Shown here piece after piece: positions 24,598 through 27,793 of a DNA stretch of 34,836 nucleotides. Numbering within the stretch: position 1 is the first letter of the stretch; each line of letters starts with the position of its first letter. The stretch comes from a virus. Taxonomy: Duplodnaviria; Heunggongvirae; Uroviricota; Caudoviricetes. The notes under the pieces are model-generated. The model was not told the DNA's origin, searched no databases, and was given only the letters and a program-made list of their open reading frames with translations. The position numbers and the translations under genes are program-made. The DNA lies in IMG/VR virus record IMGVR_UViG_2687453454_000001, positions 1-34,836 of that record. The stretch is one strand, 5' to 3'.

Positions 24598-25777
24598 ATA
24601 TCTTGCCCTGTTGACCAATATCGGGGCGGCAAAACTGGCAAAAGCCACGGCGTTGGGTACGAAAGTTGAGATTACCCAGCTGGCCGTTGGTGATGGCAAT
24701 GGTGTACTGCCTACACCGAATCCGGCACAGACTGCCCTCGTACATGAGTTACGCCGCGCCCCTTTGAATATGTTGACGGTGGACCCGGCGAACGCCAGCC
24801 AGATCATTGCGGAACAGGTCATACCGGAAGACGTCGGCGGGTGGTGGATTCGTGAGATCGGCCTTTTCGATAAAGATGGCGATATGGTGGCGATTGCCAA
24901 TTGCGCTGAAACCTATAAGCCTCAGTTGCAGGAGGGGAGCGGGCGCGTTCAGGTTATTCGCGTGATCCTGATTGTCAGCAGCACCGAAGCCGTTACGTTG
25001 AAGATTGATCCGGCTGTTGTACTGGCAACACGCCAGTATGTTGACAGCCAGCTGCGCGCGCATGAGCAGTCACGTAATCACCCGGATGCGTCAACGACAG
25101 AGAAAGGTTTTGTGCAGCTCAGCAGCAGTGTGACCAGTGACAGCGAATCGCAGGCGGCAACATCGAAGGCCGTTAAAATTGCGATGGACAATGCGAATGC
25201 TCGGCTGGCTAAAGAACGCAATCTCGCTGATTTACCTAATCCGGCACTGGCCCGCCAGAATCTGCAACTGGGTAACAGTTCGACGAAAAACACCGGTACA
25301 ACTGCCGATACCGTTGCGGCGGGTGATGATGCACGTATCACCGGCGCGATGCAGAAAAACCAAAACGGCGGGGATATTCCTGACGTGGCGAAGTTTCTCC
25401 AAAACCTTCAATTGGGAGAAGCGGCAAAAAGGGCCGTGGGAATGTGGCCGAACCAGATACCCGACATGGGATTTTTTCAGGCGATAATTGCTACAGGAAA
25501 CACATTGCTTAAATTCCCTTTCATTGACCAATACGGCAACGCCAAAACAATTATGGTGCAGTTTGTCACCATTCAAACAAGAGGTGGTGTAGATGGGGGG
25601 TATCCGCTTCCCTATGCTTTTCCTAATGCCGGTCTTTTTGCAACAGGAAACCGCGCAACATCTGGCTACAATGCCGCTATGAACGTGCGAATCGCCAGTA
25701 ATACTACCGTTAGCATACAGAACTGGGCTCCTTCTGGAGCTTTAGAAGATTGCTGTTTAATTGTCGTAGGTTGGTGA
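24587..25777 (+). CDS. H: tail fibre protein (gpH-like); C-terminal part lies inside the invertible segment
   Basis: Conserved N-terminal blocks GAAKLA..LAVGDG..IPEDVGGWWIREIGL..EGSGR..HEQSR.HPDAS..KGFVQLSS shared with P2 H as I recall it; likely GTG start at 24587 (ORF track ATG at 24566). Confidence 0.88.
   Translation: MATKYLALLTNIGAAKLAKATALGTKVEITQLAVGDGNGVLPTPNPAQTALVHELRRAPLNMLTVDPANASQIIAEQVIPEDVGGWWIREIGLFDKDGDMVAIANCAETYKPQLQEGSGRVQVIRVILIVSSTEAVTLKIDPAVVLATRQYVDSQLRAHEQSRNHPDASTTEKGFVQLSSSVTSDSESQAATSKAVKIAMDNANARLAKERNLADLPNPALARQNLQLGNSSTKNTGTTADTVAAGDDARITGAMQKNQNGGDIPDVAKFLQNLQLGEAAKRAVGMWPNQIPDMGFFQAIIATGNTLLKFPFIDQYGNAKTIMVQFVTIQTRGGVDGGYPLPYAFPNAGLFATGNRATSGYNAAMNVRIASNTTVSIQNWAPSGALEDCCLIVVGW
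25395..25420. repeat. left crossover site of the invertible segment (gix/hix-like)
   Basis: TTCTCCAAAACC-TT-CAATTGGGAGAA inside the H coding region. Confidence 0.55.
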
Positions 25778-25779
25778 AA

Positions 25780-26196
25780 ATGAATAAATTTTATAATGGC
25801 TCGTTTTATCTATTCGCTATGAAAGAAGTCTATGAAGAGGCGGGTACCTGGCCTGTGAACGGGGCTGATGTTGATGATGAAACAATGGCAATTTATACGG
25901 GAGTCGCACCGCAGGGTAAAATGCTGGGTTCAGATAAAGAGGGCAATCCTGCCTGGGTTGATATTCCGCCACTCTCAGCAGAACAACAGATTGTCCAGGC
26001 TGAACAGAAAAGAACAACATTGCGTTCAATTGCTGATAATGAAATATCCTGGCGGCAGGATGCTTATGATGCGGAGATCGCGACGGCAGAAGAAACCGCC
26101 GCGTTGTCTGAATGGAAAAAATACAGGGTCTTACTGATGCGTGTTGATACAGCTAAACCCGAATGGCCTACACCCCCGGTGGAACAGGCCAGTTAA
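25780..26196 (+). CDS. G: tail fibre assembly protein (gpG/Tfa-like), currently expressed orientation
   Basis: C-terminal ...EETAALSEWKKYRVLLMRVDTAKPEWPTPP matches the Tfa C-terminal signature; ATG at 25780 follows the H stop by 2 nt. Confidence 0.8.
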   Translation: MNKFYNGSFYLFAMKEVYEEAGTWPVNGADVDDETMAIYTGVAPQGKMLGSDKEGNPAWVDIPPLSAEQQIVQAEQKRTTLRSIADNEISWRQDAYDAEIATAEETAALSEWKKYRVLLMRVDTAKPEWPTPPVEQAS

Positions 26197-26419
26197 TATC
26201 AGGTGCACTGGAGGTATCTACCGCCTCCAGTTCATCAAGGTAATCCAGCCACAAATTGTACTGTGTGAGTTCATCACCTTTCAGCCGACCAATTGCCGCC
26301 TTACCGGGCCACTGCTTACTGTTGACATATTCAGTGGCTTCATTAATCAGGAGACGTTTTTTATTCGCTGCCGCACTGATAGCGGAATCTTTTGCGGTTA
26401 TTACCGTGAAACTACCCAT
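26168..26419 (-). CDS. alternative tail fibre assembly protein, C-terminal-domain ORF (inverted copy)
   Basis: 83 aa; ...EATEYVNSKQWPGK...APDINWPVPP matches the Tfa C-terminal domain; converges on and overlaps the plus-strand tfa 3' end. Confidence 0.6.
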   Translation of the reverse strand: MGSFTVITAKDSAISAAANKKRLLINEATEYVNSKQWPGKAAIGRLKGDELTQYNLWLDYLDELEAVDTSSAPDINWPVPPGV

Positions 26420-26702
26420 TTAACATCACCTCCCAAATCTGCGTTTCACTCTCTTCTGCATCTGAACCGTAGAAGCCAATTAATTCTACGATGATCTCTC
26501 CTGACTCCTTTCTGGCATTCAGTACAGGATTGGGGGTTAACACAGATACAAAATCGACCGCGATATCGCCATCATTCAGGATGCTAAAATCGAATGAATC
26601 GGCAACATCATCAACTTCAATCGTTAATACATCACCTTTTGCCGACACTTTCATGACGTAATCAGAACGCTGCGGGGTAAAGATTGCTTTCATCAGAACC
26701 AT
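26412..26702 (-). CDS. alternative tail fibre assembly protein, N-terminal-part ORF
   Basis: 96 aa; ends 8 nt after the next ORF's ATG; sits between H' and the Tfa C-terminal-domain ORF. Confidence 0.5.
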   Translation of the reverse strand: MVLMKAIFTPQRSDYVMKVSAKGDVLTIEVDDVADSFDFSILNDGDIAVDFVSVLTPNPVLNARKESGEIIVELIGFYGSDAEESETQIWEVMLNG

Positions 26703-27100
26703 CTCCCAACTGCTGTATATCCAAGATATGCCGCTGCATTTTGCACATTGCTAATCAGCGCCAGTGACGTCCCAGTCAGTGAACTACCGCGAACGGAAGG
26801 CCACGATGATGTACCACCTGTTGATAGTGGAGCAGAAGGTGCTACGGCTGGCCTGGTGCCAACGAAAGTTGCAGGAAAAGTGAACACAGATTCAGTGGAA
26901 AAATATAGGTTTGTCGTTCCACCACTAGGGTTACTTGTTATGGATTCGACCGACTTGGTAAAACAACAGATTAATGTTCCGTCGGCGAATTTTGTGTACT
27001 CACCATTTGAGTTAGATCCTCTCTCAATAATTGCCCCGGTCGGAACTCCCCCTGACTGAGATACTGTTCCTACGACATCAGCTTTAGCAGCCGTTCGCAA
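26693..27100 (-). CDS. alternative tail fibre C-terminal (receptor-binding) segment H', promoterless
   Basis: Reading frame runs from the right crossover site; Gly/Ser/Thr-rich, fibre-tip-like sequence; would fuse to the constant H N-terminus after inversion. Confidence 0.6.
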   Translation of the reverse strand: MRTAAKADVVGTVSQSGGVPTGAIIERGSNSNGEYTKFADGTLICCFTKSVESITSNPSGGTTNLYFSTESVFTFPATFVGTRPAVAPSAPLSTGGTSSWPSVRGSSLTGTSLALISNVQNAAAYLGYTAVGRWF

Positions 27101-27117
27101 ACCAACGTTTTCCGGAA
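27092..27117. repeat. right crossover site of the invertible segment
   Basis: CGTTCGCAAACC-AA-CGTTTTCCGGAA; its reverse complement resembles the left site with the matching central dinucleotide. Confidence 0.5.
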
Positions 27118-27223
27118 GACATGGTTACTTCTGACGGTGCGGTACCTAACCTGCAGTACAGCCAGAAATGACGATGCTCGATACAATGCGAGGGACTATG
27201 GCATCTAAATAAAGGGGATTTTT

Positions 27224-27793
27224 ATGCTGATCGGCTATGTTAGGGTGTCAACAAATGACCAGAACACCGCGCTGCAAAGAAATGCGCTGGAAAGCGCAGG
27301 ATGTGAACAAATATTTGAAGACAAAATAAGCGGCACAAAAGCGGAAAGGCCGGGGCTTAAGCGTTTATTACGAACCTTATCGAAGGGGGATACGCTGGTT
27401 GTCTGGAAGCTTGATCGTCTCGGGCGGAGCATGCGCCACTTGGTGACCATGATTGAAGAGCTACGCAATCGCGGTGTTAACTTCCGCAGCCTGACAGACA
27501 GCATTGATACCTCAACACCTATGGGGCGTTTTTTCTTTCACGTCATGGGGGCGCTGGCAGAAATGGAGAGAGAGTTAATCGTTGAGCGCACCCGCGCCGG
27601 TTTGGTTGCGGCTCGTGCAGAAGGAAGGATAGGAGGGAGGCGACCAAAACTGACAGAGCAGCAATGGGAACAGGCGGGAAGACTGATCGCCGCAGGGGAG
27701 AAACGACAGCGGGTGGCTATTATTTTTGATGTCGGAATATCGACACTTTATAAAAAGTTCCCTTCAACAAGAAGGGAACATGAAGGGGCTTAA
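27224..27793 (+). CDS. serine DNA invertase (Hin/Gin/Pin/Cin family)
   Basis: N-terminus MLIGYVRVSTNDQ with the catalytic serine context; GRRPKL and C-terminal HTH typical of this family. Confidence 0.92.
   Translation: MLIGYVRVSTNDQNTALQRNALESAGCEQIFEDKISGTKAERPGLKRLLRTLSKGDTLVVWKLDRLGRSMRHLVTMIEELRNRGVNFRSLTDSIDTSTPMGRFFFHVMGALAEMERELIVERTRAGLVAARAEGRIGGRRPKLTEQQWEQAGRLIAAGEKRQRVAIIFDVGISTLYKKFPSTRREHEGA

Follow-up and report, generated by a model that had tools for sequence, protein, structure and literature searches.

The 34,836-nucleotide (nt) stretch of DNA analyzed here, record IMGVR_UViG_2687453454_000001 of IMG/VR (the window), corresponds almost exactly to one P2-like prophage, which very probably carries a two-state DNA inversion switch of the Gin/Cin/Pin type in its tail fiber region. 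As judged from its sequence, the locus appears to have every defining feature of Fis- and enhancer-dependent invertase systems that can be examined in this way. Both crossover sites, the point of strand exchange, both orientations in natural genomes, in-frame fiber fusions, and an intact invertase gene with its enhancer sequence were observed.

The inversion is recorded in bacterial chromosomes. Positions 24566-27793 were compared by megablast with 5,426 complete genomes of Escherichia coli. The window is 100% identical to the chromosomes of three strains (EC26, 45E, and Ec73552), which therefore have the segment in the window orientation, designated A. Four other genomes (10R, EC23, BN01, and 23CRST028) contain the segment on the opposite strand, designated orientation B, where only 25401-27111 (query positions 836-2546) matches, with 99.9% identity. 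The base-by-base check of orientation B covered strain 10R of the four. The flanks of the 10R segment are colinear with the window (3896 of 3896 and 3880 of 3881 positions match) and the middle is inverted. Over larger stretches, 5400-25408 is 99.995% and 27104-34836 is 99.987% identical, and the two prophages differ by one gap and one mismatch in 27.7 kb (99.99% identity). The junctions in 10R read TTCTCCAAAACC-TT-GGTTTGCGAACG and TTCCGGAAAACG-TT-CAATTGGGAGAA. At the central TT, one junction links the outer half of the left site with the inner half of the right site, and the other junction is its exact reciprocal. Such a pair of products results from exchange at the central TT/AA and is the signature of serine invertases, which cut with a stagger of 2 bp; strand exchange at the central dinucleotide is thus seen in natural recombinants. 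An exact-sequence look-up in public contigs found the 396-amino-acid (aa) fiber of orientation A in 128 contigs, the 410-aa fiber of orientation B in 97, and the exact invertase in 308. Both orientations are common in nature, and the proposal of an earlier note on this DNA that there are two of them is borne out by the complete genomes (three versus four) and by the contigs. Since the carriers are nearly identical, recent and repeated switching can be argued.

The two crossover sites (Table 1) are imperfect 26-bp palindromes of the gix/cix type, with the form ..AAACC-NN-GGTTT... The reverse complement of the right site is TTCCGGAAAACG TT GGTTTGCGAACG, and both sites, read in inverted orientation, have the core TT. 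The right site is 119 nt from the start codon of the invertase gene. For comparison, cixL of P1 is CAATCCTAAACC TT GGTTTAAGAGAA, cixR of P1 is TTCTCTTAAACC AA GGTATTGGATAA, and gix of Mu is TTATCCAAAACC TC GGTTTACAGGAA. A half-site matrix, derived from P1 cix, Mu gix, and the Fels-2 site only, was used to score about 34,800 positions of the window; the left site ranked first with 18.7 bits and the right site third with 10.3 bits, for the maxima in shuffled sequences, the median was 11.3 and the 95th percentile 16.5. The earlier note had placed crossover-site-like inverted repeats at 25395-25420 and 27092-27117, the left one inside gene H. The coordinates proved exact, the two sites are the actual exchange points in 10R, and the left site indeed lies inside the P2 gpH-type fiber gene, at the boundary between its constant and variable parts. 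The term inverted repeat is a loose label. In a base-by-base count, the two sites compared as inverted repeats match at 15 of 26 positions, with a longest exact run of at most 5 nt, which on its own is within chance. A generic repeat search of the window did not report the two 26-bp sites, because only 15 of the 26 positions are common to both. The sites are recognizable by the consensus of recombinase sites and not by their match to each other.

The constant N-terminal part of the fiber matches the Pfam families Phage_tail_fib (1.8e-63) and Phage_fiber_2, starts at the start of the RefSeq coding sequence, and is identical as a protein in both orientations. Its last codons, CAA AAC CTT (Q N L), fall inside the left site, and the peptide encoded across the site is ..F L Q N L / Q L G E.. 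in orientation A and ..Q N L / G L R T.. in orientation B. The fusion of tip A to the constant part forms the 396-aa fiber, and relatives of tip A with 53-57% identity carry the gp53-like domain PF21882. In 10R, tip B is fused in frame to the constant part in a 410-aa fiber annotated in RefSeq, residues 277-410 of which match phrog_2712 (tail fibers). One distant relative of tip B has the name pyocin knob domain protein. Compared with each other, the tips show no detectable similarity (E = 0.77); they fall into different families, and a sequence search of the PDB with both tips returned chance-level matches only. The inversion swaps the 122-codon tip and the 138-aa assembly protein for the 136-codon tip and its accessory genes. 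The layout is that of S/U-S'/U' in Mu: the constant N-terminal part lies outside the segment, and the segment contains two alternative C-termini on opposite strands, each followed by one or more assembly genes of its own. The swap of the C-terminus of H and its assembly protein, as claimed in the earlier note, therefore stands with respect to the fiber, for which the in-frame fusion exists in 10R, but the alternative assembly protein turned out to be a pair of genes for 93-aa and 83-aa proteins. The convergent assembly genes of cassettes A (+) and B (-) overlap by 29 nt at their 3' ends (26168-26196); the annotation of E. coli strain C 236-04A (locus L014, 3079-3107), which has different cassettes, shows an overlap of the same length.

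Cassette B appears from sequence comparison to be a conserved and complete module. The 83-aa protein matches positions 60-130 of the Caudo_TAP profile (1.4e-18) and positions 7-77 of the 78-position profile phrog_3792, named tail assembly chaperone. The 93-aa protein has 33 homologs, nearly all exactly 93 aa long and 73-97% identical, mostly from Citrobacter. The order of fiber, 93-aa, and 83-aa genes is constant in eight other loci (L005-L012), with the same 8-nt overlap; these loci belong to P2-like and Mu-like prophages, and none of the eight contains an intact invertase gene. RefSeq labels the 93-aa gene hypothetical and the 83-aa gene, or part of it, a truncated pseudogene. The latter call implies a single assembly gene broken by a frameshift into minus-strand open reading frames (ORFs) of 96 and 83 aa. 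This was rejected because of the 33 stand-alone homologs of the first ORF, the recurrent 8-nt overlap, and the match to phrog_3792. The two genes thus appear to form a real two-gene accessory module. The AlphaFold model of the 93-aa protein is all-beta, with a predicted local distance difference test score of 76.5. A Foldseek search with the model found no match in the PDB below E = 0.5, and in BFVD it found one match, an unnamed 326-aa viral protein (E = 5e-4), which is uninformative about function. The all-beta protein has no Pfam family and no solved structural relative. It is possible, at somewhat less than even chances, that the 93-aa protein and the 83-aa protein, which consists of the C-terminal domain only, are an undescribed module that replaces the usual single assembly protein of about 140-180 aa, and that the pseudogene call is wrong. 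If so, the 93-aa protein would be a new stand-alone chaperone domain specific for the fiber or a small distal adhesin.

In the window orientation, cassette B is probably silent. It lacks the start codon provided by the fiber N-terminus, and a promoter scan of 24300-28400 found no promoter above chance for it (five matches versus 4.3 expected). Its expression would therefore depend on inversion, as suggested by the layout and by the precedents of Mu and P1.

The protein encoded next to the segment is an invertase of the Pin/Gin type, as had been proposed; the assignment is confirmed by Pfam domains, alignment to Gin structures, and about 82% identity to Cin of P1. Residues 3-135 match the Pfam family Resolvase and residues 138-181 match HTH_7. 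The protein matches phrog_125, DNA invertase (4.9e-96), can be aligned along its full length (residues 1-185) to the Gin structures 3UJ3 and 4M6F (E = 1e-92), and shares 85-87% identity with its counterparts in Fels-2 (85%), pro483, and other P2-like phages. Its N-terminus is MLIGYVRVSTNDQ, the catalytic Ser9 is present, and the KLDRLGRS motif is identical to that of Gin. The wild-type residues H106 and M114 are retained, whereas structure 3UJ3 has V at position 114; Fis-independent mutants of Gin map to these two positions. The enzyme also has K46, R47, R50, and the motif E-Q-A-G-R-L, all of which align with Gin, and the numbering of Hin is presumably offset by +1 relative to it. The residues correspond to K47/R48/K51 and Q151/R154/L155 of Hin, which contact enhancer DNA and Fis (McLean et al., PMC3798978).

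In the record of P1, nt 19-90 of cin are marked as the inversion enhancer, and the window aligns there without gaps. In an analysis aimed at separating constraint on the DNA from conservation of the protein, synonymous codon diversity was calculated from 80 related invertase loci from IMG/VR together with P1, Mu, and Fels-2, reduced to 70 unique genes. The diversity is 0.24-0.31 at codons 5-16, 0.46 at codons 25-32, and 0.67 in the rest of the gene, and codons 7-30 differ from the rest with a Mann-Whitney p = 0.0045, calculated from genes that are phylogenetically related. Two blocks, GTGTCAACAAATGACCAGAAC (nt 22-42) and GCGCAGGATGTGA (nt 71-83), are nearly invariant even at third codon positions. 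The window matches both, and the block centers are about 48-49 nt apart. The Fis sites of the Hin and Gin enhancers are spaced by about 48 bp. The spacing of the blocks fits two Fis sites such as those at either end of the 65-bp Hin enhancer (PMC3798978). The two blocks are presumed to be Fis-binding sites, and there is good, if circumstantial, evidence that the 5' end of the invertase gene contains a functional enhancer.

A mechanism of the switch can be proposed. Dimers of the 189-aa serine invertase would bind the two 26-bp sites, and the enhancer within the 5' end of the invertase gene, once bound by Fis, would bring both sites together. At the central TT/AA, the four strands would be cut with a stagger of 2 bp, two of the subunits would turn as a pair by 180 degrees, and the ends would be rejoined, leaving the 1.7-kb segment 25409-27103 inverted. 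The constant 274 codons and the late promoter would remain outside the segment, so that only the colinear cassette would be expressed. Orientation A would give the 396-aa fiber and the 138-aa assembly protein, and orientation B the 410-aa fiber with the unrelated tip, the 93-aa protein, and the 83-aa short assembly protein. The lysate of a mixed population would contain two kinds of virions with different adsorption specificities, and the two orientations may thus confer different host ranges. Catalysis by this particular enzyme, its dependence on Fis, and the difference in host range are what we infer.

Table 1 Positions of the inversion locus and of the integrase gene in the window
Feature	Position	Strand	Sequence or size	Remarks
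Fiber constant N-terminal part, P2 gpH type	24587..25408	+	274 codons	Outside the invertible segment
Left crossover site	25395-25420		TTCTCCAAAACC TT CAATTGGGAGAA	Core TT 25407-25408; top matrix match; 10R colinearity stops at 25408
Variable fiber tip A	25409..25777	+	122 codons + stop	Expressed tip in window orientation
Tail-fiber assembly protein, cassette A	25780..26196	+	138 aa	Pfam Caudo_TAP 3.8e-30, profile positions 6-130; phrog_188
Short tail-fiber assembly protein, cassette B	26168..26419	-	83 aa	Silent in window orientation
Conserved 93-aa protein	26412..26693	-	93 aa	Between tip B and short assembly protein
Variable fiber tip B	26693..27103	-	136 codons (26696-27103) + stop	Without own translation start in window orientation
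Right crossover site	27092-27117		CGTTCGCAAACC AA CGTTTTCCGGAA	Core AA 27104-27105; third matrix match; 10R colinearity resumes at 27104
Serine DNA invertase, Gin/Cin/Pin/Hin type	27224..27793	+	189 aa	Outside the segment
Enhancer-like region	27242..27313			5' end of invertase gene; two conserved blocks, 27245-27265 and 27294-27306
Integrase	582-1589	-		Left end of prophage

Several observations weigh against a functioning switch of this kind. By its sequence, the left site is significant alone and the right site is not. The inner half-site CAATTGGGAGAA scores only 1.3 bits, and both sites are degenerate. No promoter of the invertase gene was recognized in 27118-27223, and promoter matches in the region are at chance level. 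The assignment of Fis binding rests on homology and on conservation of synonymous sites, and the 5' ends of genes can bear other constraints. The polymorphism of orientation is seen between assemblies, each of which represents a single state. The closest relatives of both tips, with 81-99% identity, are from Citrobacter, which indicates no host for either tip. An assignment of tip A to E. coli and tip B to Citrobacter was considered and is unsupported, as the relatives of tip A in E. coli reach only 53-57% identity.

The orientation being known at the level of assemblies, one state in each, the segment might have undergone one or a few old inversions that produced two fixed lineages, with the invertase no longer acting on it. 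Decayed versions of the locus do exist, such as L007, in which a 135-aa truncated resolvase is located beside a remnant site. Such a frozen switch is unlikely here, since over 27.7 kb the prophages of the two states share 99.99% identity, the ORF of the invertase is intact, as are the enhancer blocks and the residues for catalysis and regulation, and the near-even split of 128 to 97 fits frequent switching better than one old event.

The inversion may also be real but catalyzed in trans by another invertase of the Din family in the host, for example Pin of e14, which would make the adjacent gene dispensable. Gin, Cin, Pin, and Hin complement one another, several such genes are often present in an E. 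coli genome, and megablast found up to four related places per genome. This is quite improbable as the sole source of the activity, because the right site is located just upstream of an intact and co-inherited invertase gene, and the pairing of the outer half-site with the invertase recurs in related loci; the enzyme in cis is the simplest explanation. Catalysis in trans is compatible with a two-state switch and does not exclude it.

A shufflon with more than two sites and states, like Min of p15B or the three-site P2-like locus of enteropathogenic E. coli (EPEC), is very improbable, even though such systems occur in P2-like prophages (PMC4272514). The second-best matrix match in the window (34345-34370, TTCTCTTTAACC CT GGCTTACGGGCG, 17.3 bits) is a third site-like 26-mer, located within the gpD gene at a distance of 7.2 kb from the switch. 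It has a CT core, which is unlike TT and incompatible with it, and the region up to 34836 is colinear in 10R; the element is therefore probably a chance match. The matrix scan found no other site above background within 25409-27103, and a search for the two fused fiber proteins, which covered these two only, found both. A third site was rejected on the basis of the scan and the colinearity with 10R. Misassembly can arise from inverted repeats, but that the inversion is an artifact of assembly or the product of RecA-dependent homologous recombination is hardly credible, because a match of 15 of 26 positions without an exact run longer than 5 nt is too short for either, the segment has the same end-points in four independent complete genomes, and the 10R junction is at the central dinucleotide of a recombinase site. 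A two-state switch remains by far the best explanation of the locus.

More than 598 relatives of the invertase were found in IMG/VR. Among 40 distinct upstream sites from related loci, which the two sites of the window resemble, the core is almost always TT and less often TC, and the distance from the site to the start codon is usually 67-68 nt. The subfamily of the window has the site at 119 nt and the outer half-site TTCCGG(A/C)AAACG. Two IMG/VR loci (L016 and L017) have flanks 97-99.6% identical to those of the window, and the similarity ends exactly at 25408 and resumes at 27104. An identical invertase protein is encoded beside different cassettes in E. coli C 236-04A (L014). Taken together, L014, L016, and L017 have flanks with 95-99.6% identity and entirely different cassettes, with the identical invertase in L014 and L016. 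Because the similarity to L016 and L017 breaks at the cores and the invertase of L014 accompanies other cassettes, the segment between the cores appears to be exchanged as a unit among related prophages. In the Citrobacter assembly GCA_029084105.1 (L007, 4600-5146), a remnant right-hand site (..AAATGAACGTTTTCCGTAA..) accompanies the 135-aa truncated resolvase and the fiber carries only a B-type cassette; this locus looks like a decayed switch.

The locus joins the Gin/Cin/Pin tail-fiber switches, a kind already described in P2-like prophages. It shares with the G segment of Mu and Gin the order of constant part, site, tip, assembly gene, inverted assembly gene and tip, site, and invertase gene. 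In both, the invertase gene lies outside the segment and reads away from it, with a site upstream and the enhancer (putative here) in the 5' end of the gene, and the crossover site encodes a ..QNL(G/Q)L.. peptide. The Mu segment is 3 kb long, compared with 1.7 kb here, its core is TC instead of TT, its sites are perfect 34-bp inverted repeats instead of degenerate 26-mers, and its site is 67 nt from the start codon instead of 119 nt. In addition, the phage here is P2-like and not Mu-like, and one of the cassettes has the split module of 93 and 83 aa. The C segment of P1 has the TT core, an invertase about 82% identical, and an enhancer at cin nt 19-90 that can be aligned, but its cixL overlaps the 3' end of cin, so that cin points towards the segment, which is 4.2 kb long.

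Similar loci are also known from P2-like phages and prophages (Fels-2, Escherichia phage pro483, and EPEC strain E2348/69), in which the gene order is the Peduoviridae-like V-W-J-I-H and the gpH-type fiber has a silent inverted copy, followed by a Cin/Gin-like invertase gene with 85-87% identity. Their tips and cassettes differ from those of the window, and in Fels-2, the FI gene follows the invertase gene in the same direction, whereas the invertase gene of the window is at a convergent junction. The invertible fiber loci of Mu and P2-like prophages in EPEC E2348/69 were shown by sequencing and PCR to flip in culture, and one of them is a three-site shufflon (Goldberg et al. 2014, PMC4272514). 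The P segment of e14 and Pin in E. coli K-12 is also a two-state inversion of about 1.8 kb, with a constant fiber part, alternative C-termini, and an adjacent invertase gene (PMC4272514), but e14 is a defective lambdoid element and its fiber is of the Stf side-fiber type. Hin and the H segment of Salmonella have an enzyme of the same subfamily and presumably the same invertasome mechanism, in which Fis is bound to the enhancer (PMC3798978); they differ in that hin is located inside its own segment and that a promoter, not a coding cassette, is flipped.

The closest sequenced phage to the prophage is Klebsiella phage 3LV2017, with only 77% identity over 62% of the query. The integrase gene is followed by genes for a Dam-type methylase and the gpA replication protein, and then by portal, terminase, scaffold, and capsid genes. 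The lysis genes, baseplate genes V, W, J, and I, and the gpH-type tail fiber gene precede the switch region, which is followed by genes for gpU, the tape measure protein, E, FII, and FI on the opposite strand and then by that for gpD. The tail operon FI-FII-E-T-U (27801-33236, -) is inverted relative to P2 and Fels-2, and this inversion places the invertase gene at a convergent junction, only 8 nt from the gpU stop codon.

The insertion adjoins a cluster of tRNA-Gly, tRNA-Cys, and tRNA-Leu(taa) genes (152-453), which lies at the left prophage end (region 152-520). Positions 399-520 are repeated with 94% identity past the other end of the prophage in strain 10R (L015 12047-12170, beside yecA), which is likely the duplication of the attachment site. 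Between the integrase gene and a helix-turn-helix (HTH) repressor-like gene, 1586-3098 (-) contains two ORFs, one of 292 aa that has a BRCT domain at its N-terminus and one of 209 aa without a family match. The BRCT ORF has only a weak PADLOC match (PDC-S48, 3.5e-6), in a slot typical for accessory genes. An HTH gene (8451-8828, -) adjoins the gpA gene, and a RelE-type toxin gene is annotated beside the gpA and HTH genes in strain 10R. Between the gpA region and the portal gene, where P2-like phages often carry anti-phage defense cargo, 9412-12653 (+) contains ORFs of 128 and 944 aa without a match in Pfam or PADLOC. In strain 10R, the annotation shows a frameshift in the large terminase gene (L015 31174-32894, window 14217-15938), which may be a sequencing error or an inactivating mutation; the 20-kb alignment of 10R and the window has one gap.

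The locus is real but ordinary, a textbook device that leaves the understanding of the inversion mechanism unchanged, and its only mildly new element is the split 93-aa and 83-aa module of cassette B. It is a clear case, found in nature, of exchange at the core dinucleotide, and it illustrates that related prophages replace the entire cassette between the cores as one unit. The main value of the finding is for annotation and practical phage work. RefSeq labels the locus only as phage tail protein, recombinase family protein, hypothetical protein, and truncated pseudogene, and the switch is invisible in that annotation. Silent tips of 135-236 aa are deposited as stand-alone hypothetical or gp53-like domain-containing proteins (P0054-P0065 and P0171-P0178 in our set); such entries are an annotation artifact of invertible segments. 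The switch explains why nearly identical prophages seem to have different fiber proteins, and it bears on the prediction of host range and the typing of prophages.

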